Source: a virus
Taxonomy: Duplodnaviria > Caudoviricetes
Length of the DNA stretch: 32,860 nucleotides
Reading direction: 5' to 3' (one strand)
Virus record (IMG/VR): IMGVR_UViG_3300017774_002720
Coordinates: 1 to 32,860 of that record
Below are positions 4,861 through 29,691 of this stretch, piece after piece. The position numbers were made by a program, and so were the translations under genes. The first letter of the stretch is position 1. Each line of letters starts with the position of its first letter. Under the pieces are notes generated by a model that saw only the letters and a program-made list of their open reading frames with translations, searched no databases and was not told the DNA's origin.

Positions 4861-6929
4861 TGCAAATAGAAGTATACGATACCGATATAGAGTTGCCAGA
4901 CGTTTCTGAAGTTGAATCTTGGGGAACTGATAACGCTGAAGACCAATTTTGGAGACGTAAAGAGCTTCCAAGTTTTTTTGAATTAGTAGAGTTTGACAAG
5001 GAAGGTAATGCATTGCTGACATCTCAGCAAATGGAGTATGCCTTTGAAGAAGTAAGAAGATGTAAGGAAGGTTTTTGGTTTATGAACAATGGCATAAAAA
5101 CTTTTATCACAGGGAAGCACTACTTCTACATGACCTATTGGAAGTTGGAGAATGACATATTCCCAGACTACAGAGATACAGACAGGAGATACTTTTTATT
5201 CTTAGACCACTGGGAAAGAACACCTTGGTGTTTAGGAGTGGTAAGGGGTAAGAAAAGAAGAGAGGGTGCAACTTCCCAAGCAACATCAAACCTAGTGTAC
5301 GAGTGTATATTCTATAGAAATAGTTTCTGTGGTTTAACAAGTAAGACACAGACGGATGCTAAGAATGCTTTTACTAATATGGTTGCATTTGGTTATCGCC
5401 AATTGCCTGTGTTTTTAAAGCCTAAGCAGTTAAACAATAAGGATTCAGTTACTGAATTGGTGTTTGCGCATAAGTCTGTTACTGTAAAGGGAAGTAAAGG
5501 AAGTACTATAGATACTGACACAGGGCATAGAAGTAAAGTGGATTACCGAGCACCAGGCAAGAATGCTTATGACTCTGGTCGTATTAGTAGACTATTAGCC
5601 GATGAGTTGGGGAAGTTCCCACCAGAAGTCCCTGCATCTGAATTTATATCAATTGTAAGTAAAACACTTGTGCAGGGGGTAAAGAAGGTTGGGTTCATGG
5701 AATGTCCATCCACAGTCAACGAAATGACAAAGGGTGGTGGTGCTGAGTTTAAAAAGATATGGGAGAATGCAGACCATACTAAGAAGCAAAGAACCCCAAA
5801 CAGAATGGTGAGATATTTTTCACCAGCATTTGATGGCTATGTTGGTTTTATTGACAAATATGGGATGAGTGTTATAGACGAACCAACTCCCCAACAATAT
5901 GATTTTTTAGTAGAAAGCTATGTAGGTATAGGTGACCTTACAGAAGAAGATGTAAGAGGGGGAGCAAGACAATATCTAATAAATAAAAGAGCATCGTTAG
6001 AAGGAGTTTTGCTTGAAGAAGAAATTCGTATGAACCCTTTTGATGAAAAAGAAATGTTCATGTCAGCCCTTCAAGGGAGCATATATAACTCATTTAAATT
6101 AAACGAACAAATTGATTGGTTAAATTTTAATAAAAATTGCGTAGAAAGAGGTAATTTAGTGTGGGAAAACGGGGATGAGTTTTATAAGGAGATAATCAAC
6201 GGGAATGGGAGTAGAGAAATGAAAATAAACAAGTTGATTTGGGTATCAAATCCTAATGGGCTTTACGAAAAAGTAGTGGGGTGGATGCCTAAAGAACCTA
6301 ACAATGTTTATCAAAGAGGAGGATATTTTTCTCCGAATGGGAACTACTCATTGAGAATCGGATGTGACCCGTTTAAGTATGATAAGACAAAAGACAACAG
6401 GAAGTCAAACTGTGCGACATATGTGTATCAGATGGAGGACTTGGAGAATGAATCAAACCCATACAATGATATGTTTGTCATGAGGTATGTAGACAGGGCG
6501 AATACAACTGACTTGCAATATGACCATGTATTAAAGATAGCATGGTTTTGTGGTAGCCAAGTGTTGTTTGAGAGAAACGTAAACGGATGGAAGAAGTACT
6601 TTGAAGACAAGTTGTGTAGTGGGTTTTTAATGTGGATGCCTGGGGAAGTTGAGCCTGGTATCTATACAGATGGGAACGGGAAAACTGTACAGAAAATATG
6701 CGACTACACAGAAGCGTACATAGAAAAAAACGCTGGCAAGGTCTACTTCCCAAGCCTACTAGGAGACAAATCAGGATGGCTAGGGTTTGAGGTAGACAAT
6801 ACACAGAAATATGATGATGCAATGGCGGCAGGGTTTGCACTTATAGCAGCTAAGGCAAAAAGATATTATAAACCACAAGAGTCGACACAGAAAATAGAAT
6901 CAATTATGCCATATAGAGTGGCGAATTAA
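4860..6929 (+). CDS. terL: Terminase large subunit
   Basis: Walker A-like GKKRREGATS, Walker B LLADELGK, coupling motif PST, RNase H-like nuclease motifs IGCDPF and YDDAMAAGFAL. Followed directly by the portal gene. Confidence 0.92.
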   Translation: MQIEVYDTDIELPDVSEVESWGTDNAEDQFWRRKELPSFFELVEFDKEGNALLTSQQMEYAFEEVRRCKEGFWFMNNGIKTFITGKHYFYMTYWKLENDIFPDYRDTDRRYFLFLDHWERTPWCLGVVRGKKRREGATSQATSNLVYECIFYRNSFCGLTSKTQTDAKNAFTNMVAFGYRQLPVFLKPKQLNNKDSVTELVFAHKSVTVKGSKGSTIDTDTGHRSKVDYRAPGKNAYDSGRISRLLADELGKFPPEVPASEFISIVSKTLVQGVKKVGFMECPSTVNEMTKGGGAEFKKIWENADHTKKQRTPNRMVRYFSPAFDGYVGFIDKYGMSVIDEPTPQQYDFLVESYVGIGDLTEEDVRGGARQYLINKRASLEGVLLEEEIRMNPFDEKEMFMSALQGSIYNSFKLNEQIDWLNFNKNCVERGNLVWENGDEFYKEIINGNGSREMKINKLIWVSNPNGLYEKVVGWMPKEPNNVYQRGGYFSPNGNYSLRIGCDPFKYDKTKDNRKSNCATYVYQMEDLENESNPYNDMFVMRYVDRANTTDLQYDHVLKIAWFCGSQVLFERNVNGWKKYFEDKLCSGFLMWMPGEVEPGIYTDGNGKTVQKICDYTEAYIEKNAGKVYFPSLLGDKSGWLGFEVDNTQKYDDAMAAGFALIAAKAKRYYKPQESTQKIESIMPYRVAN

Positions 6930-6941
6930 ATATAAAGAAAA

Positions 6942-9287
6942 ATGCAATATCAACAAATCAGTAGCGCAGGACAGCATCCCTACCCAAACCATGACATAGA
7001 CCCATCGAAGAAGGGAAAAGAATGGTGCATGGAATATGCAAGAGCAGCATATTATGACTGGCAATTTGTGTATCCTAAAGGTATATTCTCTGGTAACGGA
7101 GGGGACTACTCTAAGTTTAGATTATATGCGTTAGGGAAGCAGCCAAATTCGCAATATAAGAAATGGCTAGGGGTGAACGAAACTACCAACAATACTTGGT
7201 TAAGTTTGGACTGGAGCATTAGGGCAATTGTTTCTGGGTACAGAGACAAGGCTATATCAAGACTGATGGCTACTGATTATAACATAGTTGCAACTCCCGT
7301 AGACCAATTAGCTAAGTCAGAAATGAGTCAATATTATGCTGGCTTAAAAGCTAAGTTAGCTGTTAGACAGTTGATGATGAAGCAGAATCCTGAACTAGCA
7401 GAACATCCATTAATTTCTATGCAGTCTGGAGAGCCATTAGATATGGAAGAGTTAGAGATGAGAATGGAGATGGGTGAGCAGTTCAATAGAAGTAAGGATG
7501 CCGAGATGGCAATTCAACTTGCATTGTATCAAAATGATTATAAAACAAAGAGAAGAAGAATATACGAAGACTTATTTGACTTAGGAGTAGCAGGTGTAAA
7601 GGATTGGTTAGGTGATGACAACAAGCCATACTTTAGAGTAGTAGACCCTGAGTGTGTAATAACATCGTTTGATAAGAATGGAGATTTTTCTAATATTGTT
7701 CATGCTGGGGAAATTATAGACGTTCCTTTAATTGAATTGGCTACTGTAAAAGATGACGAGGGTAACATAATGTTTACCGAAGATGATTTGACACAATTTG
7801 CGTCAACAATAGCAGGTCAGTTTGGTAACCCTAGACTATTAGGTTTGGGAACTGGATGGATGAAGCCATACGATAAGTTTAAGTGTAAGGTACTTGACAT
7901 TGAGTTTTATACGTACAATGACAGAGTTTATCGTGATGCAGTAGATGAGCAAGGCAATCCTGACTTTAGAAAGGCAGACTTTTCAAGAGGCAAGAAGTCG
8001 GAAAAGTATACAAGAAAGAAAATACAGTACGTATATAAATGTAAGTGGGTTATAGGGACAGACAAGGTATATGACTTTGGAATGTGTTACGACCAAAAAA
8101 GAGAAAACGAGTTAAGAAATAAGGCTAAAACAAAGTTGTCTTATACTTTTTATGCTTATAATTTCTATCAAATGAAGGCTCAGGGGATGATGGAAAGATT
8201 AATCCCTTACGTTGATGATTATCAACTAACAATGTTGAAGATACAAAACTTTAAGAATAGGGCAGTGCCTTCAGGATGGTGGATAGACTTATCAGCATTA
8301 GAGAAAGTAGCTATGACAAAGGGAGGTCAGGATATGCAGCCTCAAGAGTTATTGCAAATGTTCTTTGATACAGGGGTGTTGTTGGGAAGAAGTGATACAG
8401 ATGGGGGTACACCTCAGAGTGCAAATTGGAGACCAGTAATTCCCATAGAAAATACAGCAGCTAGTGAACTATCAATGTTCTACAATGACTTAGTAAGCAC
8501 ACTGTCTGCAATAGAAAGAATTACAGGTTACAATGATGTTACACTTGGTCAAGCGTCATCAAAGACACTTGTGCCTGGATACGAGAGTGGTCAACAAAGC
8601 ACAAACGAAGCTCTTTATCCCTTAGCATTTGCAGAAGAAAATATAATGTTACGACTTGCAGAAGGATTATTGTGTAGGACACAGCAGGGATTGAAATATG
8701 GGGGAATAAGTGGGTATGCTCCAGCATTAAATTCCAATACACTAAGATTTATGGAGATTTCCCCAAGCATAACATTAAGAGACTATGGGATAGAGTTAGA
8801 AAAGCGTACCACTCAAGACCAAAAGGCATGGTTAATGCAAATGATGCAACAAGATATTGCCAACGGGTTATTAAACACATCAGATGCTGTACTTCTTGTA
8901 AACACAAAAAATGTTAAAGAGGCTCAGATGATTTGGGCATACAGATGCAAGAAAGAAAAAGAAAGACAAGCGGAGCAAAGAATGCAAGAAATACAAGCAC
9001 AGCAACAAGGCAATATGCAGGCTGCACAGATTGCACAGCAAGCAGAAATGCAAAAGTTCCAAATGGAATCGCAATTTGAATTACAAAAAGAACAAATGAG
9101 GATTCAAGGTGAACTAGAAAAAGAAAGAATGAGAATTGAATCAGCGGAAAGAATTGCGATGGCTAGTAACCAAACTAAGTTACAGATATCTAGCGAAACG
9201 GGTAACGCAAAAGAAAACTCATCACATATAACTGGTCAGTCATCTATATTAAAACAACAAATAGCAAATGAAAAAAGAAATAAATAA
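6942..9287 (+). CDS. Portal protein (large, crAss-like type)
   Basis: 781 aa immediately after terL. Portal-like segments DLFDLGVAGVK and ERITGYNDVTLG, plus a Q/E/M-rich C-terminal coiled-coil barrel typical of podovirus portals. Confidence 0.85.
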   Translation: MQYQQISSAGQHPYPNHDIDPSKKGKEWCMEYARAAYYDWQFVYPKGIFSGNGGDYSKFRLYALGKQPNSQYKKWLGVNETTNNTWLSLDWSIRAIVSGYRDKAISRLMATDYNIVATPVDQLAKSEMSQYYAGLKAKLAVRQLMMKQNPELAEHPLISMQSGEPLDMEELEMRMEMGEQFNRSKDAEMAIQLALYQNDYKTKRRRIYEDLFDLGVAGVKDWLGDDNKPYFRVVDPECVITSFDKNGDFSNIVHAGEIIDVPLIELATVKDDEGNIMFTEDDLTQFASTIAGQFGNPRLLGLGTGWMKPYDKFKCKVLDIEFYTYNDRVYRDAVDEQGNPDFRKADFSRGKKSEKYTRKKIQYVYKCKWVIGTDKVYDFGMCYDQKRENELRNKAKTKLSYTFYAYNFYQMKAQGMMERLIPYVDDYQLTMLKIQNFKNRAVPSGWWIDLSALEKVAMTKGGQDMQPQELLQMFFDTGVLLGRSDTDGGTPQSANWRPVIPIENTAASELSMFYNDLVSTLSAIERITGYNDVTLGQASSKTLVPGYESGQQSTNEALYPLAFAEENIMLRLAEGLLCRTQQGLKYGGISGYAPALNSNTLRFMEISPSITLRDYGIELEKRTTQDQKAWLMQMMQQDIANGLLNTSDAVLLVNTKNVKEAQMIWAYRCKKEKERQAEQRMQEIQAQQQGNMQAAQIAQQAEMQKFQMESQFELQKEQMRIQGELEKERMRIESAERIAMASNQTKLQISSETGNAKENSSHITGQSSILKQQIANEKRNK

Positions 9288-10688: not shown

Positions 10689-12059
10689 ATGCCAGTATCA
10701 TCAGGAACAATGGTGAAATCCTTCGTATCTGCGATTGATTTCTTAGACCAAAGGGACATCGACCCTAACATTTACGACCAAAGTCGTGACAGAGCTTTTA
10801 CCGATATTATGAAAATCGTTAATCGCACAAAACCAGCTAAAATGTTTTTCTACAATAACTTCGTTAACAACGATGTTTATGAAGTAGCAACAATTTCGGC
10901 TGTTACAACTACAGGAGCAGTAACTGTTGTATTTACAATTACAGGTGGAGCATATCTTTTCCCAAGAGTTGGAGATTTGATTAAAACTTCAAACACTTCT
11001 AACGTAGGTAAGCAAGCATTAGTTACTATAGTAGACACTACAACAACTGCTGGTTCTGCAATTATTACTGCAAAATCTGTTGACAACACAAACTTTGCAG
11101 TTGTAGTTAACGATAGAGTTCAATTTGGTTCAAATGCATTCTCAGAACAATCTGGTGCACCAACAAATCGTAGATATGGTTTAACTAAATACTACAATAA
11201 CATTCAAATATTTCGTGAAGTTGATGAGATTTCAGATGTACAGAAAGTTGCTAAAATTGAAGTTAATGTAGGTGGTGATTATCATATCTTACCTTACCAA
11301 ACAGTTCAGAAAGTTATCAAGTTAAATGGTGATATTTCTGTACAAATGTTAGCTGGTACTCAATCAACAACAGGGTTTACAAATGCATCTCCATTTGCTA
11401 CAACTCCAGTTCTTACTGGTTCAAATGGTTTGCCTATTCAAACAACTGGTGGTCTTGATTGGTATGTAACTAACTACGGTATTTCTGATAGTGCTACTAC
11501 ATTAGGTACATTCGGTTTTGTTGAGTTAGATGAAATCATTGACAACTTTATTGCTAATAAAGCACCTACAGATATGATGGTGTTTATGGGAAGTCGTGCT
11601 TATCGTTTGATTTCTAAATTCTTAAAGCAATTAGGTTCATCTTCAGTAGATTCAAGACGTTTGAACGTAGATGGTAAAGACTTTGATTTCAACGTAGAGC
11701 ACCTTTCTTATGGTGGTTACGAATTTGATTTCTGTCATGTTCCTATCTTTGACCATCCACAATTATTTTCTGCTACATTAGTTGCTGATGTTAACGGTTC
11801 TTTGTACTTTGTACCAAAAGACCAAGTTGATACAGTAGACAATGGTCGTCAACCAAGAATGCAGATTCGTTATACTCCTACTCCATTTATGGGTAGCGCA
11901 GCTAACAAGTCTTCTAATGGTATGATTACTGAGTGGAGAACAGGTGCTTTGGCTGAAATTCCAACATCATCAACTATGCAATTGCATACTGACTGGGAAA
12001 CAGCACAAGGTCTTGAGTGTTTAGCAGTTAAACATTTCCAAAAGTTCAGAGTTATCTAA
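10689..12059 (+). CDS. Major capsid protein
   Basis: 456 aa after the scaffold. HK97-like segment YYNNIQIFREVDEIS and a beta-rich T/V insertion. Codon usage looks like a highly expressed gene (CGT, GGT, TTC, AAC). Followed by a terminator. Confidence 0.85.
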   Translation: MPVSSGTMVKSFVSAIDFLDQRDIDPNIYDQSRDRAFTDIMKIVNRTKPAKMFFYNNFVNNDVYEVATISAVTTTGAVTVVFTITGGAYLFPRVGDLIKTSNTSNVGKQALVTIVDTTTTAGSAIITAKSVDNTNFAVVVNDRVQFGSNAFSEQSGAPTNRRYGLTKYYNNIQIFREVDEISDVQKVAKIEVNVGGDYHILPYQTVQKVIKLNGDISVQMLAGTQSTTGFTNASPFATTPVLTGSNGLPIQTTGGLDWYVTNYGISDSATTLGTFGFVELDEIIDNFIANKAPTDMMVFMGSRAYRLISKFLKQLGSSSVDSRRLNVDGKDFDFNVEHLSYGGYEFDFCHVPIFDHPQLFSATLVADVNGSLYFVPKDQVDTVDNGRQPRMQIRYTPTPFMGSAANKSSNGMITEWRTGALAEIPTSSTMQLHTDWETAQGLECLAVKHFQKFRVI

Positions 12060-13728: not shown

Positions 13729-14256
13729 ATGAGTTTAACAGCCAATTTCACAACTTCCCAAACATACGGAGTACCTAATTCAATAAACTTTTTAGATACC
13801 TCTACAGGTACAGACAATACTATTACTAGCCGCAGGATTTACATGAAAACTGCGGCTAATACTTATTTAGTACAGAAGGGAACACCTAATATTTATGAAG
13901 TTTGGGGAATTAATAATTCATCAATAACATTAAACGTGTTGCCAAAGGATTATGCTTTAGAGGTTACAGTTGAATGGGTGGCAGGGAATACTGTGGTAAC
14001 TAGCAAGGTGTATAATTTAGGATTTACTTTATACAACGAAACATTTGATTACCAACTTACGCAGGTTTTATCTGCGAACCCATTGGTTATAAACGACAAC
14101 AATTTCTTCCCAAACAAAAGCGATTTAAGAGTAAACATAGACAGTGGTAACCAAGCCATATTCTTTGCAACAGACTTATTTGCAGCACAACAATGTTACG
14201 ACAGGGCTACTAATTTAAGATTAAATTCACAGTATTATTTTAATGCCAATAGTTAA
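13729..14256 (+). CDS. Structural protein with a PKD/Ig-like N-terminal domain
   Basis: ANFTTSQTYGVPNSINFLDTSTG resembles the start of a PKD domain. Helical C-terminus. TAATG-coupled to the next gene. Confidence 0.55.
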   Translation: MSLTANFTTSQTYGVPNSINFLDTSTGTDNTITSRRIYMKTAANTYLVQKGTPNIYEVWGINNSSITLNVLPKDYALEVTVEWVAGNTVVTSKVYNLGFTLYNETFDYQLTQVLSANPLVINDNNFFPNKSDLRVNIDSGNQAIFFATDLFAAQQCYDRATNLRLNSQYYFNANS

Positions 14257-14765
14257 TGTATACAATAGAGGAAATAATAGAAATAGCTAAGATAAGCCAA
14301 TACTTAAGTGCGAATGATATCGCACAGAAGGGCTTATTTGGTGGGGGAGTTGACAACGAACTCCCTAACAAGTTGTATAACATACGCAAGAGTGTAGAAT
14401 GGGCTCACACTTATTCCCAAAACATCACAGAAGTAAACGCAATAGGTTCAATAAACATAATAGACACAGGGCGAATAGGACAAACATTACAGGTCTTTGT
14501 AGATGACCCAGTGTTAGGGTATATATTCTTAGGGCAGTATCAGATACAGCCTGGTGACTCTTCCCCAACAGCAGTAGCTGTATTAGTAGCTAACGCATTA
14601 AATACAAATACGTATGGTTACGTAGCTTCTTCTACAGGGGCAGTGGTTTCGATTACTGCAAGACCTGGCTTGGGAAGTAGTATAAACGGGGGTTTACATT
14701 TATTTGTAAACATTGCTGAATTTCTTGGTATATTTGATGAAACATTTGACAACACTTTTAACTAG
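14256..14765 (+). CDS. Structural adaptor/fibre-docking protein
   Basis: Helical N-terminus, then a beta-rich domain, ending in the repeat IFDETFDNTFN just before a fibre gene. Confidence 0.5.
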   Translation: MYTIEEIIEIAKISQYLSANDIAQKGLFGGGVDNELPNKLYNIRKSVEWAHTYSQNITEVNAIGSINIIDTGRIGQTLQVFVDDPVLGYIFLGQYQIQPGDSSPTAVAVLVANALNTNTYGYVASSTGAVVSITARPGLGSSINGGLHLFVNIAEFLGIFDETFDNTFN

Positions 14766-14771
14766 TAATAT

Positions 14772-16103
14772 ATGTCACAAAAAACGGATGCTCAATTAAT
14801 AACGGAAGCAACAGTCATAAGAACAGAAACGGCTTTAGGTGCTAATACAGCAAATAGAGTAGGAACAATGTTTGTTGATAGCATTGACAGTAAAATCAAT
14901 ACAGATGTAATTGATGCTAATATCGCCTTGGGAAGTAGTGACGCATTAATTCCCACACAAAATGCAGTAAAAACATATGCAGATGGACTTGTGGTAGGTC
15001 TTGTAGATGATAGGGGGAGTTTTACGCCTAGTGTTACATCTCCTGGAGCTTACCCTTCAACAGGAGGAAGTGGGGCAGGAGGTGCTATTAAAAAAGGAGA
15101 TTTATGGTTTATGAGTGCAGCAGGATTCTTGTCTACAACTGCTGTTGTAGCTGGAACTAGTGTTAGGGCATTAGCAGATAATCCAGGACAAACAAACGCG
15201 AATTGGAATATATTAAATTCGGGATTAGGATTTACTCCAGAAAATGTACTTAACAAGTCTACAGATATTACATTAGGTGGAGGGACACCAAGTGATATAT
15301 TGTATCCATCTCAAAAAGCAGCAAAGTCGTACATTGATGATAATGCAGCGTTAGTAGATAGTCAAAATACTTTTTCAAGTTTAAATTTCTTTGATGCAGG
15401 GATTGATGTTGATGGGGAATCTGATATAAATAACGAAATGCGTGTAAGAAATATTGGTATTTCTTTTTTAGATGATGCTAGATTATATATGGGAACAGAC
15501 CCAGGGACTGTTGGTCAAGTGTTAACAAGTCAGGGAGGTACAGTTACACCTACATGGGAAACTCCGACTCCTGGCATTTCCCTAGCAGGAGACAATACTT
15601 TTACAGGAGATAATACATTTACTCAAAGTACACAGTTTACTGCTGGTATATTAAGTCCAGTTGGAGGTACATCTACATTTAATGGAACTCTAGATATAAA
15701 CGGTTTTTTAAGAGTAGGAGGACAACAAGGAACTGCTGGTCAGGTATTAAAACAAGGAGCAAGTGGCATCCCAGCTTGGGGTGATGCTGGGGTATTGCCA
15801 TACAAGGTTTATACTGTATTGTTAAATGATACATTTAATTCGGGATTTACTCAATTTGTATTACAAGATACAATTACGTCTGTAGGGACAACTTTAAATT
15901 GGTTTAGTCAGGGAAATGGAGTTTATCGCTTAGATGCTACAGGGTCTAGCCCATTTACTGAAAATAAAACATGGGTTGTAATTGGTCAGGTTATCGCTGT
16001 TAATACATATTTGCTATCTATGTTGACTAATAGAATTTCTATCAAAACTCAGGCTGGGCAATATTTCCAAAATTTAGCAATAGAAATAAGAGTTTATCCA
16101 TAA
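14772..16103 (+). CDS. Tail or head fibre protein without signal peptide
   Basis: N-terminal ANTANRVG motif. Repeats P[TS]QxAxK[TS]YxD x2, GTxGQVL..G..PxW x2 and GDNTFT x2. C-terminal domain PYKVYT...IEIRVYP. Rich in G/T/S. Confidence 0.75.
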   Translation: MSQKTDAQLITEATVIRTETALGANTANRVGTMFVDSIDSKINTDVIDANIALGSSDALIPTQNAVKTYADGLVVGLVDDRGSFTPSVTSPGAYPSTGGSGAGGAIKKGDLWFMSAAGFLSTTAVVAGTSVRALADNPGQTNANWNILNSGLGFTPENVLNKSTDITLGGGTPSDILYPSQKAAKSYIDDNAALVDSQNTFSSLNFFDAGIDVDGESDINNEMRVRNIGISFLDDARLYMGTDPGTVGQVLTSQGGTVTPTWETPTPGISLAGDNTFTGDNTFTQSTQFTAGILSPVGGTSTFNGTLDINGFLRVGGQQGTAGQVLKQGASGIPAWGDAGVLPYKVYTVLLNDTFNSGFTQFVLQDTITSVGTTLNWFSQGNGVYRLDATGSSPFTENKTWVVIGQVIAVNTYLLSMLTNRISIKTQAGQYFQNLAIEIRVYP

Positions 16104-16107
16104 TAAT

Positions 16108-16527
16108 ATGCAAGTACAAGTAACACAATTTGCTGGGGGAGTAACGGGTCAAGTAGAAGACCCAAGTATAAGAACTACGTCAAGGTATTTGTATGCTTTG
16201 TGTGCCCCTTATAGTTTAAAGGCTTCGTACATTATAAATAATTTTTCAAATGGGGGAACTTCCCCTACATCAGGACTAACTACTATAGTTTCTCCTCTAA
16301 GAATAACACAAGATGACTTTGCTACTGCTACTCAATGGAATGGGGCTAATAGCATAAATCAGGTAATATATGCTTCTTATAGATTGCAAGTTTTTGCTAA
16401 CTTTATAGCTAGGTACTTAACACAGGGTACGGAGTGGGTTAGGACACCTAATGGTATAAATATACTATTGGATGGGTTTGATGCTACTGTTAATGATTAC
16501 GAATTTTATATTGACATAAGTTTATAG
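16108..16527 (+). CDS. Hypothetical structural protein
   Basis: 139 aa in the fibre module, containing YLYALC and a beta-rich C-terminal domain. Confidence 0.6.
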   Translation: MQVQVTQFAGGVTGQVEDPSIRTTSRYLYALCAPYSLKASYIINNFSNGGTSPTSGLTTIVSPLRITQDDFATATQWNGANSINQVIYASYRLQVFANFIARYLTQGTEWVRTPNGINILLDGFDATVNDYEFYIDISL

Positions 16528-16530
16528 TTT

Positions 16531-17613
16531 ATGAATAAAATAATATTATTGGTTTTATTTGTTTTTTCTTATTGTGTGGGAACTTCCCAGTCAATATCAC
16601 AAAGAAGCCAGCCTGTAATAACTGTACAAGATGCTAGACTATTTGCTCAATACAACTTTAGACCTCCTGTATTTGCAGATACCATACAAGCTAACCTTCA
16701 AATAGGGTTAGATAGCTGTGGGGCTTTGATTTTCTCTAGAAGCATAAACTCGTACTACTACAGGGCTTGCAGTCCTAAGAGATGGGTCGCAATAACTTCT
16801 GGAGGTGGCGGAGGGACATTTCAGAATAATATAACAATGAATGCTACTACAGCAAATAGGTTAGGGTATTGGGTGAATGGGGAAACAATTCCCGTTGCAG
16901 GAAAAACATTAGATGAAGCCTTTGAAATAATTACTCAAAAAGCAGTACCTCCAACATACACAGCTCCTACAACAACTATCTCATCTTCCCCAACATCAGG
17001 AAATGTAGAAATAGGTTCATCAATTAATGTTACCTTATCAAGTACATTTACTCAAAACGATGGGGGAGTATTAACATCTACTACTTATTTTAGAGGAGCA
17101 ACGTCATTAGGTGGTAATACAGACGTTATCACTAGTATAACTACACCGATTTCCTACACAGTTCAAAAAGCGTATGCTCAAGGGAATTGTAAAAATAACA
17201 ATTTAGGACAGCAAGATTGTACAGGTAGAATCAATGCTGGCACAGTTACTAGTTCCCCTACAACATTTACTCCATTATCAAAAAGATATTGGGGATATTT
17301 AGATGCAAACACTACTCCTAATAGTGCGCAAATATTAGCCACACAAGGAGGTGGGTCAGAATTAAGTTCATCAAGGGCAGGTACTTTTACAGTAGCAGTA
17401 GCAGGAAGTGATAAGTTTTTATATTATGCTTATCCAGCATCACAATCAAATTTGACATCTTTAACAATAAATGGTTTTCAAACATTGCCTGCTTTCTCTC
17501 CGCCTGTAACAGTTTCGGTAACAAATGCAAGTGGGTATTCGCAAAATTATTTGGTTTATATAAATAGAGGGAATCCTCAAAATGCAGGGTCGGTAACTTT
17601 TATTACACAATAG
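16531..17613 (+). CDS. Signal-peptide-bearing fibre/adaptor-like protein
   Basis: MNKIILLVLFVFSYCVGTS|Q looks like an SPI signal. Ig-like T/S-rich middle (PTYTAPT...), C-terminal YYAYPAS...YLVY domain, and two Cys pairs in the mature part. Confidence 0.7.
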   Translation: MNKIILLVLFVFSYCVGTSQSISQRSQPVITVQDARLFAQYNFRPPVFADTIQANLQIGLDSCGALIFSRSINSYYYRACSPKRWVAITSGGGGGTFQNNITMNATTANRLGYWVNGETIPVAGKTLDEAFEIITQKAVPPTYTAPTTTISSSPTSGNVEIGSSINVTLSSTFTQNDGGVLTSTTYFRGATSLGGNTDVITSITTPISYTVQKAYAQGNCKNNNLGQQDCTGRINAGTVTSSPTTFTPLSKRYWGYLDANTTPNSAQILATQGGGSELSSSRAGTFTVAVAGSDKFLYYAYPASQSNLTSLTINGFQTLPAFSPPVTVSVTNASGYSQNYLVYINRGNPQNAGSVTFITQ

Positions 17614-17616
17614 ATT

Positions 17617-20388
17617 ATGAAAAGAATATTATTTTTATTATTTAGTTTAATTGCTATTACTTCCCAAGCACAAGTAAGTCTAGGAGGTTACATTCAACCA
17701 TTAAACAATTCATCTTATCCTGTTCAAATAGATAGTTTGGGAAAAGGTGGCTATATGGTAGCAAGAGATACTATTGAAAGAGATGCTATACCTTGTCTTA
17801 GAAAAAAATACGGGATGGCTGTTTATGTTCAATCAGTACAAAAACTCTACATTTTAAAGGATTCTACTTGTGTAAACACTTGGGTTGAATTTAGTGGCGG
17901 TAGTGGAGTATTCGACACCGTATATACTCAAAGCCCTATAATGTCCATAACAAGAGGGGATTCTAACATTATTTTTTTCAATGCGGATACAGCTAATGCT
18001 TGGAGGGGGAATGACACAAGCGGAGTAGAGGGAAATGGGACTCAAAATTTAGTTGCTAAATGGCTAATAACAGGCTCTATTCTTACTAATTCTCAAATAT
18101 ATGATAAAGATAATGTAGGTATAAATACAACCCTTCCAGAGTACAAATTAGATGTTGATGGTACAGGTAGATACAGAGATACATTATTTGCTGATAGTAA
18201 TTTAGTAATAAAAAAATTAGCTACAGGCATTGGTAACGAAGATAAAATGGTCACAATAAACTCTTCAGGGTTACTTAAAACACAAGTTATACCATCAGGT
18301 GGTGTTGCAGTAGATACAATTTTTAGAATATTAGGGAAGGATAGTATTTTTTATAAAAAGAACAATATCACTTATGCCATTAAAGATAGTGTTGGTGGTA
18401 GTGGAGTATTGGATACCGTATATACTCAAAGCCCTATAATGTCTAGAACAAGTGGGGATTCTAACATTATTTTTTTCAATGCGGATACTGCTAATGTATG
18501 GAGAGGTGGGGGAGGTGTTGCTGGTAGTGGTACACAATACTTTGTTCCTAAATGGTCAAATAGTACAACACTTCAAAATTCTCAAATCTTTGATTCGGTA
18601 AATGTTGGAATTAACACAACTTCCCCAGCTTATAAATTAGATGTAAAAGGTACAACAAGAATAAAAGCAGAGAGAAGTGGAGAATTATTTTTAATAGAAG
18701 ATTCACTTGGTAATGATAGGATAAAAGTAAGTAATGATAGTACATTTATAACTGGTGGAACAATACCTTTAACGATTATAGGTAGTGGGGGAGTTCAAGC
18801 AAGAATTGGGAATTCTAGTTTTGAATCACCACAAAGAATTTATAGATACAATGGGGATGTATTGGAATTTTATGCTGGGAATAATGATAATATTGGATTT
18901 GATTATAAATTTAATAATCAACAACTATCTACATCTACAAATTCGGCAATGATTAATTTAGGAGGTATATACAACAATCAACAATCATTTGCGTTTTCAA
19001 ATTTATTAATTTCCCCAACATACAATTTTGATTCTACAAATGTAACATCAAGTGCCATTGCAAGGGGAATATATTACAATCCGAATATACCTTTAAATGG
19101 ATTGAGAAGTGCAAAACACATTGCATTTCAAAGTAATTCTGGAAATGTAGTTATGAAGGGTTTAAAAAAATCATCTTCAACTACGGATAGCATTGCAATT
19201 TGGATTAATGACACATTAAGCAAAGCACCTTATCCATCAGGGGGTGAAGGCGGTGTTGCTGTAGATACTATTTTTAGGACTTTAGGTAAGGATAGTATTT
19301 TTTATAAAAAGAATAACATTACTTATGCTATTAAAGATAGTGTGGGAACTAATCCTCCACCTTTAGGATATTATGGAGCATTTTCAGACACTGTTACTCA
19401 AAATGTAGATATATTTTTCCCTTTAATTGGTGTCCCAATAAAGTTTAGAATAAATGACATAACACCCAATGGTATATCTATAGTAAGCAATTCAAGAATA
19501 ACTATTGCAAATGCAGGTGTTTACAATTTACAATGGTCAGCGCAATTTTTAAATCCAAATACATCTGAGGCAGATGTAAGCGTTTGGCTTAGAAAAAATG
19601 GTAGCGATGTGCCAGGTAGCCGAGGACTAGTAGGAGTTCCAAAAAGAGTTGGTGGAACAAATGGTCATATTTTACCATCATGGAACTTCGTAGTAAATGC
19701 TTCTAGTAACGATTATTACGAATTTGTTTGGAACGCAGCCAACGGAGATATTACAATGCCATACCTTGCGGCAGATGCAAATTCCCCAGCAACAGCAAGT
19801 GCAGTATTAACTGTTACTCAACAATCAGGTATAATGGCAGGTACGGGAATTTCCCCTTTAGATACAGCAAATATGCTTCTGCCTTACTTACGCAAAGCAG
19901 ATACAACAGCATTTCAACGCAAATCAATTCCGTCTTATACATTCTTAGCTAACAATACACCTGCAACGGCAAACGCGCAAGCTTTACCATTTAAAGATAC
20001 ATCGGGGGTGTATACACTTTCTCCAGTTTGGAGTACATCAGCTCCAACAGGTGCTACAAATCATACTTATAGATGGACAAGAATAGGCAACATGGTAACG
20101 CTTAACATATCACTTGTCTATGGTACAGTAAGTTCTAATAATACAACCTTAACAATTCCATTACCTACAGATTGCCCAACACCTGTAAAGCCAACAGGAT
20201 TAACAGCAGCAAGCAACTTTTTATATCCTGGTAGTTGCAATGGTGGTAATGCCTTAACAACGGCTGGTAATTTATCTGCTAGAGGTGGCTTAAGAAGTAA
20301 CGCAACAACTGGATTTGAAATTGCATTTTCATTTACACCTAATCCTTTTATATTTTTTCAAACAACAGTAACTTATTATACTAATTAA
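17617..20388 (+). CDS. Signal-peptide-bearing fibre/receptor-binding-like protein with internal repeats
   Basis: MKRILFLLFSLIAITSQA|Q signal. N-terminal ERDAIP..RKKYGMAVYV domain, NVGINTTxPxYKLDVxG shaft motif x2, C1q/BclA-like domain (GVYNLQWSAQF...WLRKNG...DYYEFVW), and terminal head domain (YRWTRIGNMVTL). Confidence 0.8.
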   Translation: MKRILFLLFSLIAITSQAQVSLGGYIQPLNNSSYPVQIDSLGKGGYMVARDTIERDAIPCLRKKYGMAVYVQSVQKLYILKDSTCVNTWVEFSGGSGVFDTVYTQSPIMSITRGDSNIIFFNADTANAWRGNDTSGVEGNGTQNLVAKWLITGSILTNSQIYDKDNVGINTTLPEYKLDVDGTGRYRDTLFADSNLVIKKLATGIGNEDKMVTINSSGLLKTQVIPSGGVAVDTIFRILGKDSIFYKKNNITYAIKDSVGGSGVLDTVYTQSPIMSRTSGDSNIIFFNADTANVWRGGGGVAGSGTQYFVPKWSNSTTLQNSQIFDSVNVGINTTSPAYKLDVKGTTRIKAERSGELFLIEDSLGNDRIKVSNDSTFITGGTIPLTIIGSGGVQARIGNSSFESPQRIYRYNGDVLEFYAGNNDNIGFDYKFNNQQLSTSTNSAMINLGGIYNNQQSFAFSNLLISPTYNFDSTNVTSSAIARGIYYNPNIPLNGLRSAKHIAFQSNSGNVVMKGLKKSSSTTDSIAIWINDTLSKAPYPSGGEGGVAVDTIFRTLGKDSIFYKKNNITYAIKDSVGTNPPPLGYYGAFSDTVTQNVDIFFPLIGVPIKFRINDITPNGISIVSNSRITIANAGVYNLQWSAQFLNPNTSEADVSVWLRKNGSDVPGSRGLVGVPKRVGGTNGHILPSWNFVVNASSNDYYEFVWNAANGDITMPYLAADANSPATASAVLTVTQQSGIMAGTGISPLDTANMLLPYLRKADTTAFQRKSIPSYTFLANNTPATANAQALPFKDTSGVYTLSPVWSTSAPTGATNHTYRWTRIGNMVTLNISLVYGTVSSNNTTLTIPLPTDCPTPVKPTGLTAASNFLYPGSCNGGNALTTAGNLSARGGLRSNATTGFEIAFSFTPNPFIFFQTTVTYYTN
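17899..18008 (+). repeat. Intragenic direct repeat A, copy 1
   Basis: 110 nt with 9 mismatches to 18397-18506 (manual alignment). Confidence 0.95.
18301..18395 (+). repeat. Intragenic direct repeat B, copy 1
   Basis: 95 nt with 11 mismatches to 19252-19346, mostly synonymous. Confidence 0.95.
18397..18506 (+). repeat. Intragenic direct repeat A, copy 2
   Basis: Encodes GSGVLDTVYTQSPIMSRTSGDSNIIFFNADTANVWRG. Confidence 0.95.
19252..19346 (+). repeat. Intragenic direct repeat B, copy 2
   Basis: Encodes GVAVDTIFRTLGKDSIFYKKNNITYAIKDSVG. Confidence 0.95.
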
Positions 20389-20600: not shown

Positions 20601-21971
20601 ATGAAGTTATTTTTTATAATATTACTACTTCCATTTTATTCCTTTGCGAATACATACTATGTGTCTCAAAATGGCAATAATGATAGTAGCGGATTGTTTG
20701 TAAACAAAGCATGGCGAACACTTTCCAAAGTGGAAAGTGTTGTAGCTAGTGGCGATTCTGTTTTGTTTGAAAGAGGTAGCAGATTTGCTGATTCATTAGC
20801 CATCTCTAACAAATCAAACATTTATTTTGGTGCTTACGGCACTGGTGCTAATCCTTTATTTTGGGGTAAAGGAAGTACCATAAATGAATTAGTATTACTT
20901 TCAAATTGTTCCAACATAACTTTTTATGGTTGGACAATATCAGATACAACAATATCACCTACAGATAGAACTGTACAAGCTAAAATACAAATAGTATTTC
21001 AGTTTGGTAGTAACAGCACAAACAATGTAATTAGAAAATGTACAATGGATAGAATCGGATATGGTGCTTATTTTCGACCATTTTCAAATTCAAATACAAT
21101 GGATTCGTGCGATATTGGCAACTTAAGAATGATAAGAAATACTCAAGGTGGTGATGATGATTTTGGCGGTGTTCCTGTTCAGCTGTCTAGTAGAAATAAT
21201 ATAGTAAGCAACAATTACTTTCACGATTGTTATTCAACTAGTTTTGATTATGGTAATGATGGTGGAGGTGTAGAGTTTTTCTTGGAAACAGACACCGTTA
21301 AAGGCAATAGAGTAATGTACAATACTTTTTATGATGGTAATGGTACATTTGAGTTTGGGAGTAATAGTGGAGCATTAAGACCATTTACAGACAATATGAT
21401 TTATTACAACAAGATTATAAACTCTTCATCATTACTTTACATCAATAACAATCCAAATGCGAGTTATGAGACAAAAGTAAGAGGTTTGCAAATCTTTAAT
21501 AATATCATTGTTCAAACAGTTCCTAGTCGTAATTTAACTGATAGGATGATTAATATGCACACCGCTGACCCTACTGCTGGTATTCTTGTTATGCGTAATA
21601 ATATATTTGAGGTAACCAATGGTGCTAACGTTGCAAGACCTGACAGATTTAACACAGGGCAGATGATTAACAGCAATAATATCTATAAGTTATCAGGTGG
21701 CGGTGTGTTAAATTTTCCTACAAATTCTACAGAGATTGAAACAAATGGGGTTATTTGGGTTGATACAACAAATGCAAATCCTTTGTTTTGGAATTATAAT
21801 TTAACAGCAACATCACCAGGAATTAACAATGGTGTAAATGTAGGGCTTACAAGAGATTTTATTGGCAATCCTGTTGGTTCTATTCCTGATATTGGAGTGT
21901 TACAATTTGTAACAACACAGCCGACTAATAAATTTGTTACTAGAAAAAAATTCGTGAATTCATTGCCATAA
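20601..21971 (+). CDS. Secreted right-handed parallel beta-helix (pectate-lyase-like) protein, candidate tailspike/depolymerase
   Basis: Signal MKLFFIILLLPFYSFA|N. TYYVSQNGNNDSSG..AWRTL and GDSVLFERG N-cap, Asn ladders, and a C-terminal DFIGNP...PDIG choice-of-anchor-Q-like motif. Confidence 0.8.
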   Translation: MKLFFIILLLPFYSFANTYYVSQNGNNDSSGLFVNKAWRTLSKVESVVASGDSVLFERGSRFADSLAISNKSNIYFGAYGTGANPLFWGKGSTINELVLLSNCSNITFYGWTISDTTISPTDRTVQAKIQIVFQFGSNSTNNVIRKCTMDRIGYGAYFRPFSNSNTMDSCDIGNLRMIRNTQGGDDDFGGVPVQLSSRNNIVSNNYFHDCYSTSFDYGNDGGGVEFFLETDTVKGNRVMYNTFYDGNGTFEFGSNSGALRPFTDNMIYYNKIINSSSLLYINNNPNASYETKVRGLQIFNNIIVQTVPSRNLTDRMINMHTADPTAGILVMRNNIFEVTNGANVARPDRFNTGQMINSNNIYKLSGGGVLNFPTNSTEIETNGVIWVDTTNANPLFWNYNLTATSPGINNGVNVGLTRDFIGNPVGSIPDIGVLQFVTTQPTNKFVTRKKFVNSLP

Positions 21972-23427: not shown

Positions 23428-23705
23428 ATGAAAAAGACCTTAAAGAGCCATCCGTTCCCGAACAAGAAGAAATAGAAGAGTATGTATACGAGGAATCTAC
23501 TCCATGGAGTGAAGTAATACACTCGGTTTTTGCAGCGTTTTCTGCCATTGAAGATATAGACATGGCGATGTCATCTAATCAGGACAGGGTAAGAATAAAA
23601 AGGATACGGAGAAAAGGATTGGTTTTACTGGATATGGGAATAAGCGAGATTTATCAAGATAAAATAGAAGAATATGGAATTGAAGAAAGTACTGAAGATA
23701 TATAG
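23424..23705 (+). CDS. Acidic hypothetical protein
   Basis: 93 aa, overlapping both neighbours in the operon. Confidence 0.65.
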   Translation: MNEKDLKEPSVPEQEEIEEYVYEESTPWSEVIHSVFAAFSAIEDIDMAMSSNQDRVRIKRIRRKGLVLLDMGISEIYQDKIEEYGIEESTEDI

Positions 23706-24171
23706 TTTGTTAGCATTGTTGCTCACAGGATGCTATAAGCCTATGGATGCATTAAGAGATATCTATAAGGCAGAAATGCGTTATCCTAAAGTTGTTTCTG
23801 ATTATGTGGGGGAACACTTCCCATGCAATCCAAGAACAGATAGCTTAATAAAAATAGACACCTTATACAAGGACATAGAAGTGATATGTCCCCCTAGCGA
23901 TACGTTATACGATACTATTAACCAAATCGCAACCAAGATAATAACAAGACCTGTAAAGAAATATATATCTATTCCATCTAAAACTATCACCATTACTAAG
24001 TACGTGCAGGACTCAGCTAAGATTAGGTCATTATCATTAGCCAATTCCCAAACACAACTAGAATTAAAAAAATGTTCAGAGCAAAAGGAAAAGAAATCTA
24101 ACTGGATACTTTGGTTAGTTATCGCATTGTTTTGTAGCCTTTTGCTTAACGTGATTCAAATAAAGAAATAG
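23674..24171 (+). CDS. Putative unimolecular spanin (N-terminal lipoprotein signal plus C-terminal TM)
   Basis: Lipobox LLLTG|C and C-terminal TM WILWLVIALFCSLLLNVI. Adjacent to the endolysin. Confidence 0.7.
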   Translation: MELKKVLKIYSLLALLLTGCYKPMDALRDIYKAEMRYPKVVSDYVGEHFPCNPRTDSLIKIDTLYKDIEVICPPSDTLYDTINQIATKIITRPVKKYISIPSKTITITKYVQDSAKIRSLSLANSQTQLELKKCSEQKEKKSNWILWLVIALFCSLLLNVIQIKK

Positions 24172-24173
24172 CC

Positions 24174-24638
24174 ATGCAAACAAGTAATAACTTTGTAAAA
24201 TCAATAATAGCTTCAGAAGGATTAGAATTGGATGCGTATAGAGATTCTAAAGGAATTCCTACAATTGGTATTGGAACAATTAAATACCCTAATGGGGTAA
24301 AAGTTAAGATGGGTGATAAGTGTACTGAGGAACAGGCTTATTTTTATTTGAATGATTATGTAAAAAAAATGGTTATTGCTATAAATAAATTAATAAAAGG
24401 TATAGATATAAACCAGAATCAATTCGATGCTATTTGTTCCCTGACCTATAATATAGGAACGACAGGATTTACCGATTCTACAGTATTGAAATTAATGAAA
24501 AAGAATCCTAAAGACCCATTAATAGAGGGGGCTTGGTTAGCTTGGAACAAAGAAACAAAAAATGGTATCAAAGTCCCCAGCAAAGGGTTGACTAATAGAA
24601 GAAAAAGAGAATACCAGTTGTATATCACTCCTATGTAA
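24174..24638 (+). CDS. Endolysin, GH24 phage lysozyme
   Basis: Catalytic E-x8-D-x5-T (EGLELDAYRDSKGIPTIG), plus QNQFDAICSLTYNIG and GLTNRRKRE. Confidence 0.93.
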   Translation: MQTSNNFVKSIIASEGLELDAYRDSKGIPTIGIGTIKYPNGVKVKMGDKCTEEQAYFYLNDYVKKMVIAINKLIKGIDINQNQFDAICSLTYNIGTTGFTDSTVLKLMKKNPKDPLIEGAWLAWNKETKNGIKVPSKGLTNRRKREYQLYITPM

Positions 24639-25136
24639 TTACAAGGTAACATTTACAGAGTAGATGTATCCTAGTGCATCCTTAACCCTGAAGGTGTAGT
24701 TGGTATTTCTTCCCAAACCATTCCAAAAAACCTTATTTAGAATATAACTTGATGTAGAATTTCTGCTGAATTTGTAAGGAGGTTTTCCCCCACTTGCTTC
24801 TAGTTTTATAGATAAGAATAGATTAGGTGATGGAACATATTGTTCAATAGGTACATACCTTGTGCCATTCCATGCAAACAACTTCATAGTAACATTGTCG
24901 TACAGCGTACATACAGACGTTTTAACGCAGTCTTTTGAGTCTTTTGCATAGATTGTATGCCGACCTGCAATTACGTTAAAAAACGTATCGTTTACTTGGT
25001 ATGGATTACCATCTATGGAATAAGTATACGGAGCAGTTCCCCCACTTCCATTTGCCTTAATAAAATTACCTTCCAACTCTTGAGAATAACATTTAGTTGA
25101 CATCAACAAAAAGGTCGCAATGATTATTTTGTTCAT
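24639..25136 (-). CDS. Secreted protein with two SprB-like repeats
   Basis: Start reassigned to MNKIIIATFLLMSTKCYS|Q. Repeats SGGTAPYTYSIDG...HTIYAKDSKDC and SGGKPPYKFS...YTFRVKDALG. Confidence 0.7.
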   Translation of the reverse strand: MNKIIIATFLLMSTKCYSQELEGNFIKANGSGGTAPYTYSIDGNPYQVNDTFFNVIAGRHTIYAKDSKDCVKTSVCTLYDNVTMKLFAWNGTRYVPIEQYVPSPNLFLSIKLEASGGKPPYKFSRNSTSSYILNKVFWNGLGRNTNYTFRVKDALGYIYSVNVTL

Positions 25137-25147
25137 AATATTTTTTA

Positions 25148-25390
25148 TTACCAATTATAAATATTAATTACGCAATACTTTTCTCCAACATTAATTATTT
25201 CGTATACTGATGTTGGTATTATATCAAAATGTCTTTCATTACCACTACAATCGTTTTTGACTACAATAGTTTGATATGGATAAATGGCAGTTGTATTACC
25301 ATAATCCCATGTAATTACACCACAGTTACAAATTTTTTCTTTTTTGCAACTCGTTAAAAATAACAACATTATTATTATTATTTTCTTCAT
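25148..25390 (-). CDS. Small lipoprotein
   Basis: Start reassigned to MKKIIIIMLLFLTS|CKKEK. Cys-rich mature part (CNCG...C...C). Confidence 0.7.
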   Translation of the reverse strand: MKKIIIIMLLFLTSCKKEKICNCGVITWDYGNTTAIYPYQTIVVKNDCSGNERHFDIIPTSVYEIINVGEKYCVINIYNW

Positions 25391-26648: not shown

Positions 26649-27200
26649 TTAATAAATTGTTTTATCAACGACCTTTTTTTCTTCTTCGTTTAAATCTGCA
26701 TTAATACTATTTTCATATTTTATACATACCTGTTTCCATTCAGATATGCTTAATGAAATGCTTTTCCAAAAAGCAGCATAAACTACTTTGTTATTAACAA
26801 TTGCAGACATCTCATAGCCATCGCCCTCGTAATATGGCTTTTTAAAAAAATCAAATGATGAATAAGGCGCACCATATTTTTCTGTGAGTAGATTCAAATA
26901 AGATTCGTACCTATGTTTTATATCACTCCAAGACAAATCTTTAGGCAAGTAAACTTGAACCTGCCAGACTTTATGTGTTATGGGAGTTGATACGATTAGC
27001 ACTTCGACCTTGTTGTTATCAACTATGCCATCCATTGTTGTGACATTGTCGCTAGGAGGTATTGACACCTTGAATCCTTTTGCCTTGTATTTTGCAACTA
27101 CCGATTCTCTGCTCCCTTCTACTTTTATGCCTATAAACTCTTGGCAATAAGATGCAAACGAGGTTATAATTAACGCTAATAAAATTGTTGTTTTTTTCAT
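26649..27200 (-). CDS. Exported protein of unknown function
   Basis: Signal MKKTTILLALIITSFASYC|Q, and an LTEKYGAP motif. Confidence 0.75.
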   Translation of the reverse strand: MKKTTILLALIITSFASYCQEFIGIKVEGSRESVVAKYKAKGFKVSIPPSDNVTTMDGIVDNNKVEVLIVSTPITHKVWQVQVYLPKDLSWSDIKHRYESYLNLLTEKYGAPYSSFDFFKKPYYEGDGYEMSAIVNNKVVYAAFWKSISLSISEWKQVCIKYENSINADLNEEEKKVVDKTIY

Positions 27201-29421: not shown

Positions 29422-29691
29422 TTAATTTTCGGTTTTTAAATATTGTTTGTATACGTTGCCAGTCTCTTTAGATGTTCTGAGCACATAGAGTTTCCCGTTT
29501 GCACTTTCATACACGGGGAATTGTTCGCCTTTGGCATTCGTGTACGTTTTGCCCGTAGGTTTGTCCTCAGACGCTTTCCTAGGGGTTGTTTTTGTCACAA
29601 AATTACCATCGGCATCTCTTACTACCTTTGACTGGCTAAAGGCTAATGACGAGGCTAAAAATAAGCCTACAATTAATGTTATTTTTTTCAT
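29422..29691 (-). CDS. Small exported basic protein
   Basis: Signal MKKITLIVGLFLASSLAFS|Q. C-terminal PTGKTYT...VYESANGKLYV...YKQYL loosely resembles the PBCV basic adaptor domain. Confidence 0.7.
   Translation of the reverse strand: MKKITLIVGLFLASSLAFSQSKVVRDADGNFVTKTTPRKASEDKPTGKTYTNAKGEQFPVYESANGKLYVLRTSKETGNVYKQYLKTEN

Follow-up and report, generated by a model that had tools for sequence, protein, structure and literature searches.

The window analysed in this study, the virus record IMGVR_UViG_3300017774_002720 (Caudoviricetes; 32,860 bases, with freshwater metagenomes as the best-matching data sets), contains an open reading frame (ORF) for a fibre-like protein of 923 amino acids (aa) with a predicted Sec signal peptide and 23 canonical Bacteroidota O-glycosylation sequons, D-[ST]-[AILVMT]. 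The best explanation, which is regarded as probable on the sequence evidence, is that the fibre is exported by Sec, O-glycosylated by the host and docked on the virion at lysis. Its first part, the predicted export and host O-glycosylation, is strongly supported by a signal peptide of the Q-rule type, by a sequon enrichment tied to the signal, by the profile of residues at position +2 of the sequon and by the conservation of the sites.

Exact counting showed 47 Asp residues in the fibre, 28 of which are directly followed by Ser or Thr; 23 of the latter belong to canonical sequons, three to DSN and two to DTS. The identical figures had been given in a preliminary description of this DNA, made by manual count, and its values for the neighbouring proteins (five sequons each in the beta-helix protein and the spanin, two in the 443-aa fibre and one in the 360-aa protein) were also reproduced. 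Shuffling of the fibre gave a mean of 3.6 sequons, so that the observed number is six times chance, and 23 was reached in none of 5000 shuffles. With the second repeat copies masked 17 sequons remained against 2.9 expected (shuffle maximum 13 in 20,000 runs), and the loss of enrichment on collapsing the repeats, which the preliminary description had named as contrary to its proposal, did not occur. Shuffling within local windows of 30 residues gave 3.4 (maximum 11), and codon shuffles with GATC forbidden gave a mean of 4.0 (maximum 12 in 3000 runs). Since the excess survives all four null models, chance, repeats, local composition and GATC avoidance were rejected as its cause. The control motifs were found once (reverse motif), not at all (E-[ST]-h, where h is hydrophobic) and five times (N-[ST]-h). 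Only three of the 41 window ORFs tested had p < 0.05, namely the fibre, the 456-aa protein (5 sequons vs. 1.4 expected, p 0.008) and the 165-aa lipoprotein (5 vs. 0.54), and each of them has a signal peptide. No enrichment was seen in the exported 360-aa protein (1 vs. 0.9). The comparison of signal-positive with signal-negative proteins by shuffling, suggested in the same description, showed the enrichment to be real in the fibre and absent in the signal-less 443-aa fibre (2 vs. 2.6).

Signal peptides were called by our own heuristic of charge and hydrophobicity, not by SignalP. The N-terminus of the fibre shows the n/h/c pattern of a predicted Sec/SPI signal together with the Q-rule, by which a Gln follows the signal peptide in Bacteroidetes (PMC5837995). 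The sequence [AGS]-Q was present at the expected place in 92 of 93 distinct N-termini of signal-bearing homologues. By the textbook rule, tail fibres are synthesized in the cytoplasm without a signal peptide. With a signal in 135 of 193 homologues, the 923-aa protein appears to be tail-fibre-like in role and not a conventional member of that class.

Among the best 120 of 386 homologues, the 105 signal-bearing proteins contained 1350 sequons against 306 expected (about 4-fold). The 15 proteins without a signal contained 136 against 52; by eye, nine of them looked truncated at the N-terminus, and the other six, whose N-termini are intact and ordinary, contained 14 against 25. A larger control set of 37 intact signal-less homologues, obtained from the 58 non-signal proteins among the 193 by dropping 21 as truncated, had 154 sequons against 177. 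The same dependence was seen when complete proteins of at least 300 aa with a C1q domain were compared: in viral proteins 103 sequons vs. 24 with a signal (n = 9) and 46 vs. 77 without (n = 24). C1q-domain proteins from genome contigs showed 22 vs. 26 with a signal (n = 11; actinobacterial, Aquirufa-like and others) and 39 vs. 40 without (n = 20). In a C1q-domain tree of 49 rows, from which 18 suspected truncations were left out by name, there are at least six switches between signal-bearing and signal-less proteins, and the sequon enrichment mostly tracks the signal; this switching shows that modules are exchanged with ordinary fibres, not that the stalk arose independently several times. In four near-complete relatives, 34 signal-bearing ORFs had 110 sequons against 31 and 283 signal-less ORFs had 183 against 174, one signal-bearing fibre of G412, cut by the region limits, being counted as signal-less, which biases the tally against the result. 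Intact homologues that share the tip domains but lack a signal thus show no enrichment.

Some short genes show other combinations of signal and motif. Three small signal-bearing Q-rule genes on the minus strand of the window (24639-25154, 26649-27200 and 29422-29691), one with an SprB repeat (PF13573), have no canonical sequons, which indicates export without the motif. Small lipoprotein-like genes of two relatives (L370:19100-20608 in G413 and L365:15843-16472 in G411) have 3-7 sequons each, indicating that short periplasmic phage proteins are densely tagged too.

The motif itself was examined in the unique 7-mers of the signal-bearing set, where X-[ST]-hydrophobic triplets were enriched 3.1-fold with Asp as X, 0.96-fold with Asn and 0.54-fold with Glu. 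The residue after D-S/T was L, I, V, T, A or S in 753 of 859 cases (87.7%), with 0.8-2.9% each for M, F, C and G, 2.3% for N, and at most 0.3% each for K, R, Y, W, P and E; in the signal-less controls the first group made up 51.7% against a background of 49.8%. Ser at +2 lies outside the counting motif, yet it is enriched like the other accepted residues. In measured glycoproteomes the corresponding values are about 90% for the first group, about 2% each for M, F, C and G and less than 1% for the last group (PMC12871550, legend to Figure 1A). As judged from the sequences, the +2 profile of the fibre set is close to this measured Bacteroidota preference. In 4255 non-independent alignments of 40-75% identity, sequons were retained at 81% of the aligned places vs. 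47% for N/G-[ST]-h control triplets; for the window fibre alone the values were 81% and 27%. Motif sites in non-cytoplasmic Bacteroidota proteins are generally almost fully substituted, according to the same source (PMC12871550).

The sequons are unevenly distributed along the fibre. They account for 3 of 4 Asp residues in the N-terminal domain, 17 of 31 in the stalk, 1 of 8 in the C1q domain, 2 of 3 in the helical linker and 0 of 1 in the distal head, and in 89 homologues for 1030 of 1974 Asp residues outside the tip domains, 122 of 557 in the C1q domain and 0 of 97 in the head. This map, with sites crowded in the stalk and avoided in the tip, favours a stalk coat. D-S-L/M and a Cys pair were present in 11 of 11 signal-bearing versions of the N-terminal domain and in 0 of 3 signal-less versions, which have Ala at the Asp position and no Cys pair; one of these starts directly with the domain at its N-terminus. 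A site contrast at the first C1q sequon was discarded, as the signal-less set included truncated proteins.

Residues 576-923 were modelled by AlphaFold from a 38-row alignment with a mean predicted local distance difference test (pLDDT) value of 83, about 90 in the C1q-type jelly roll; a single-sequence run on them (pLDDT 42) was discarded for this version. The structural matches listed for the model were taken up by the C1q-type domain, leaving no named fold for the distal head. The jelly roll matched the C-terminal domain of F-BclA and BxpB with Z 16.3 and a root-mean-square deviation of 2.0-2.5 over 133-135 residues, and the CBD of the short tail fibre of cyanophage A-1(L) with Z 13.8. The C-terminal region of the fibre is 43-50% identical to the C-termini of signal-less fibres, and the helical linker differs in signal-less homologues. 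By eye, the stalk contains internal repeats at 17899-18003/18397-18501 and 18292-18396/19243-19347. In contigs of other strains entire stalk modules, or else the C1q domain, are skipped (joints 18399-19900, 19243-19900 and 18641-19112), which points to ongoing module exchange. An Atlas search with residues 19-360 gave a best score of 0.90, to viral clusters without names, and no S74 chaperone was found in the 923-aa fibre.

Two sampled Bacteroidota genomes, Sediminibacterium and Aquirufa, neither known as the host, served for comparison. In 800 kb of a 3.8-Mb Sediminibacterium metagenome-assembled genome, 186 signal-bearing ORFs showed a 1.66-fold sequon enrichment. The share of Asp residues lying in sequons is 0.49 in the fibre vs. 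a maximum of 0.30 among 103 comparable exported proteins of that genome, and only one of the 186 ORFs (160 aa) has a higher sequon density per residue. Weak chromosomal relatives were found in 7 of 401 genomes of the family of G001, and the five chromosomal fibres seen whole are sequon-poor (5 vs. 6.0 expected).

Table 1. Positions of the fibre, its parts and other genes in the window.
Feature	Position	Strand	Basis or remark
Terminase	4860-6929		phrog_6681 match
Portal	6942-9287		phrog_6547 match
Major capsid protein	10689-12059		PF17236 match
169-aa anchor-like protein and 443-aa signal-less fibre (internal negative control)	14256-16103	+	
139-aa cytoplasmic protein: second half of conserved anchor domain, then a small beta domain at the C-terminus; candidate docking site of exported fibres	16108-16527	+	
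360-aa signal-bearing protein, not enriched; candidate intermediate adaptor	16531-17613	+	
923-aa fibre-like protein, predicted Sec/SPI signal, 23 canonical O-glycosylation sequons	17617-20388	+	no Pfam hit
Predicted signal peptide, residues 1-18; cleavage after S-Q-A would expose Q19 (Bacteroidetes Q-rule)	17617-17670	+	heuristic on sequence
N-terminal domain, residues 19-98, with 3 sequons and the pair Cys60/Cys85; probably the docking domain	17671-17910	+	
Mosaic stalk, residues 99-582; 17 sequons among 31 Asp	17911-19362	+	
C1q/TNF/BclA-type jelly-roll domain, residues 583-737; 1 sequon among 8 Asp	19363-19827	+	
Helical linker, residues 738-800; 2 canonical sequons and DTS	19828-20016	+	
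Distal beta-sandwich head, residues 801-923, no sequon; likely receptor-binding tip	20017-20388	+	confident beta model
456-aa signal-bearing probable beta-helix protein; 5 sequons	20601-21971	+	no Pfam hit itself
165-aa lipoprotein-like, spanin-like protein before endolysin; 5 sequons; periplasmic positive control	23674-24171	+	spanin label from position and shape
Endolysin	24174-24638		PF00959 match

The closest isolates are podophages of Flavobacterium, Cellulophaga, Tenacibaculum and Maribacter. With identities of just 20-29% in terminase and portal to the Pachyviridae, Pervagoviridae and Elemovirus, the phage was not filed as a member of any of these. The host is likely a member of the Bacteroidota; members of the sequence cluster yielded no host name, and no RNA data set was among the matches listed for the window. 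Near-complete relatives have genomes of 69-76 kb, and the window is less than half of one. Contigs from two sequencing runs, both possibly the source of the window, are identical to the fibre gene wherever they cover it, in one run over its full length; a direct pattern search for the fibre across genome contigs gave no confirmed match. The sequence GATC does not occur in the window (about 80 expected), and in five of nine relatives the first stretch lacks it as well. This suggests that the phages avoid a GATC-directed restriction or methylation system of the host. A ferritin-like gene (PF00210) at 3888-4382, between a large virion gene and the packaging genes, is kept in many relatives.

After de-duplication 44 clade loci were available, and 23 of them reach at least 4 kb beyond a conserved 175-aa gene. 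A signal-bearing fibre is present in 18 of these 23, at capsid identities of 57-100%, and is the first long gene after the anchor in 15; signal-less fibres stand alone in five. Across the relatives, one and the same gene slot holds a signal-bearing fibre in some and a signal-less fibre in others. As seen by eye, the C-terminal end of the anchor co-varies with the next fibre, and a small beta domain like that of the window's 139-aa protein precedes the signal-bearing fibres; ordinary fibres are preceded by short anchor motifs or are fused with the anchor (G408). The anchor-like protein is encoded by a single gene in some relatives (L003, L010, L019, L021 and L007 examined) and split around the 443-aa fibre gene in the window (14256-16527), and its exchangeable C-terminal end resembles a plug-and-socket code with the N-terminus of the following fibre. 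The slot of the 456-aa protein is occupied in G406 by a 453-aa protein matching PF22842. Long signal-less fibre-like genes were not seen in G411 (100% complete), G412 (95%) and G406 (85%).

In 4 of 4 loci this fibre type is preceded by the C-terminal domain of the 360-aa protein, a domain that also forms the end of chained genes in unrelated phages. Three of the latter (L261:3453-7235, L262:92-2764 and L263:3483-7109) have three-gene chains, the first two genes ending in a domain related to the 360-aa C-terminus and the next gene beginning with a shared N-terminal domain. This placement, together with the gene chains, suggests a branched fibre as in crAss001. A complex prediction with one copy each of the 360-aa C-domain and the fibre N-domain scored 0.00 and was counted neither for nor against an interaction. 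There was no support for homology between the fibre N-domain and the N-terminal domains found behind the same upstream domain in unrelated phages (hhalign E 0.84, 0.37 and 0.28), and profile A1 and the 175-aa gene gave nothing significant against PDB sequences.

The cultured Cellulophaga phage phi18:3 (Pachyviridae, NC_021794.1) shares related podophage packaging genes with the window and has three adjacent signal-bearing genes before its lysis genes. Their products, gp085-087, begin with N-termini of the Sec type that follow the Q-rule, and their annotation as virion proteins derives from tandem mass spectrometry (MS/MS) proteomics, which provides an indirect precedent for the export of virion proteins. 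The loci L023:2892-8584 (phi18:3) and L022:1865-7844 (phi13:2) contain three signal-bearing Q-rule structural genes with sequons below chance, and the records of both phages are silent on signals; no signal-bearing fibres were present in the regions examined of elemoA and phi38:1. A virion role of the window fibre is supported by the gene position, the shared tip domains and, by analogy, the phi18:3 proteomics annotation.

According to the preliminary description, no phage glycosyltransferase is present in the window. None was indeed found by Pfam and PHROGs scans of 27 ORFs, but the window is less than half a genome and the absence holds for it only: a trio of glycosyltransferase-like genes is found ahead of the tail genes in seven of nine relatives, the two without it being the least complete genomes. 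The trio (Atlas score 0.98, without a Pfam or PHROG match) lies directly upstream of the tail genes at L364:14687-17640 in G411 and at matching places in G406-G408 and G412-G414. A phrog_8858 match and an epimerase were found in G414, and a nucleotide-sugar epimerase is present in some genomes. The trio may lie in the missing part of the window's genome. Since it is also present in G408 (78% complete), a genome in which an exported fibre was not seen, its role is probably a different one, the capsid, DNA or a host glycan being candidate targets.

The sequence of events proposed is as follows. The fibre would be exported by Sec with predicted cleavage at A18/Q19, and in the periplasm a Cys60-Cys85 disulfide and trimers would form, domains of the C1q/TNF/BclA type being trimeric. 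The host periplasmic system would O-glycosylate the stalk, glycans presumably occupying the sites. Lysis would mix periplasm and cytoplasm, and the fibre would dock onto the finished particle, possibly via its 139-aa and 360-aa neighbours. The glycans would most likely serve as a hydrophilic coat, keeping the stalk soluble, protease-resistant and non-sticking in the periplasm and leaving the binding tip bare. The preliminary description went further in inferring that the fibre is routed through Sec so that the host glycosylates it; export and glycosylation are strongly supported by the sequence, but the purpose is too strong in view of the signal-bearing proteins of phi18:3, and several of the clade, that have no sequon excess, and glycosylation would be an add-on to export, not its cause.

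Several observations weigh against the proposal. The signal calls rest on a heuristic, and the homologue counts are not independent. The nearest isolates are distant in terminase and portal, and the exported proteins in 400 kb of the Aquirufa genome are not enriched (0.76-fold), from which it follows that the signature of the glycosylation system is not uniform. Some signal-bearing relatives are not enriched either (990 aa, 1 vs. 3.9; 706 aa, 2 vs. 1.8), nor is the 360-aa protein. Unlike the window fibre, gp085-087 of phi18:3 are sequon-poor (1 each vs. 2.9-3.7 expected), as are the signal-bearing proteins of phi18:3 and phi13:2 together (1 vs. 2.9-4.8 each), so that glycosylation would be optional; gp085 has no detectable homology to the fibre (best E 1.3), and the mass spectrometry annotation could reflect co-purification. 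The window has its own ordinary 443-aa fibre, and signal-less S/T/G-rich genes also occur in G407, G413 and G414, so that the virion fibre of this phage need not be the exported protein.

One alternative is unlikely, though the strongest of the rivals: a protein exported and host-glycosylated but not part of the virion, placed in the envelope of the infected cell or released at lysis, where it would mask or soak up receptors, sparing progeny from loss on debris, or block superinfection. Export places the protein outside the compartment in which capsids assemble, an ordinary fibre is encoded separately in the window, and Q-rule genes of Porphyromonas phages were interpreted as envelope modifiers (PMC10367356). 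Against a non-virion role, no other long fibre-like gene was seen in G411, G412 and G406, fibres with and without a signal alternate in one slot and exchange tip domains, the phi18:3 proteins were annotated from virion MS/MS, and neither a membrane anchor nor a lipobox is evident in the fibre sequence.

Cytoplasmic assembly, with the signal bypassed or left uncleaved in a fraction of the molecules and with glycosyltransferase-like enzymes of the phage itself supplying whatever sugars there are, is improbable. In its favour is the trio in seven of nine relatives, in some with an epimerase adjoining the tail genes, but the trio also occurs in G408, without a visible signal-bearing fibre. The motif fits the host periplasmic system and also tags the spanin-like lipoprotein, the clade's cytoplasmic virion proteins lack a motif excess (the 283 signal-less ORFs above), and the Cys pair and Q-rule indicate the periplasm. 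Slightly more improbable still is D-S/T-hydrophobic as a structural turn or cap motif of the stalk modules, unrelated to sugars. Most sites lie in modules absent from signal-less fibres, so that module and signal are confounded. However, Asn, which commonly shares such turns with Asp, is not enriched, the +2 profile matches the enzyme, the signal-less N-domain versions carry Ala for Asp, and the five chromosomal fibres with related repeats are sequon-poor. Very improbable is a relic captured from a host surface fibre, with signal and sequons as inherited baggage: Bacteroidota chromosomes do encode signal-bearing fibres with weakly related repeats, but these are sequon-poor, the signal is kept in 18 of 23 clade loci across the wide span of capsid identity, the sequons are better conserved than their surroundings, and the Asp-in-sequon share exceeds that of all 103 host proteins compared.

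Export followed by host glycosylation and docking at lysis resembles several known systems in part. Bacteroidota O-glycosylation acts on D-S/T-(L/I/V/T/A/S/M) in non-cytoplasmic proteins only and refuses Glu, and the substrates described there are bacterial (PMC12871550); here a phage protein has 49% of its Asp residues in sequons. In PhicrAss001, also a short-tailed Bacteroidota phage, the trimeric fibre N-terminus docks on hubs and binds further fibre proteins, and a similar fibre chain may exist in the window phage; in contrast, 'signal peptide' and 'glycosyl' are absent from the main text of that source (PMC10172136), and the 175-aa gene has no sequence match among solved structures. The archaeal spikes of HRPV-1 and HFPV-1 are attachment proteins glycosylated by the host's outside-facing oligosaccharyltransferase, which aids particle stability, but those viruses are enveloped, with N-glycans, membrane-bound spikes and exit by budding (PMC10384203). 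The window phage is lytic and tailed with no sign of an envelope, so the exported part must meet the particle after export. Glycosylation of mycobacteriophage virions is carried out by phage enzymes in the cytoplasm, without export and without such a sequon. The likeness lies in the glycans on a tailed-phage particle, added by phage-encoded glycosyltransferases (PMC11256854). The MAT fibres of Bdellovibrio share the signal peptide, conserved N-domain, mosaic stalk and variable adhesive tip (PMC10769870), and BclA-type fibres the C1q-type domain; both belong to the surface of bacterial cells or spores and not to virions. The nearest cases in print are these archaeal spikes and MAT fibres, together with the Q-rule genes of unknown function in Porphyromonas phages (PMC10367356). 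No description of exported or host-O-glycosylated tailed-phage fibres was found in the literature, judged mostly on titles and the openings of abstracts, with supplements (e.g., phi18:3 peptides) outside the scope. The present analysis adds the glycoproteome-matching +2 profile, the matched signal-less controls, the map of stalk vs. tip and the anchor co-variation.

A wider and tentative reading, possible though not favoured, is a two-compartment assembly across a large clade of lytic short-tailed Bacteroidota phages. The head and tail would be made in the cytoplasm; the whole host-recognition apparatus would be exported, disulfide-bonded, pyroglutamate-capped, densely coated with the species-specific O-glycan of the last host and docked on dedicated hub domains at lysis. 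Particles would carry an imprint of the previous host's glycan, possibly remodelled by the phage trio, and such an imprint could adjust adsorption or the range of hosts.

The accepted view is that the assembly of tailed phages takes place entirely in the cytoplasm. If the proposal is true, periplasmic fibre maturation with post-lysis docking would be a second assembly route, unusual for a tailed phage, and a bacteriophage would be using a 'viral glycoprotein' strategy of the eukaryote-like kind; the export half of the proposal is checkable in cultured phi18:3. Both the purpose and the transferase of Bacteroidota O-glycosylation are unknown according to a 2025 review (PMC12871550). The fibre would provide a testable function for this system and, with its 23 selected sites, a strong reporter for finding the transferase.

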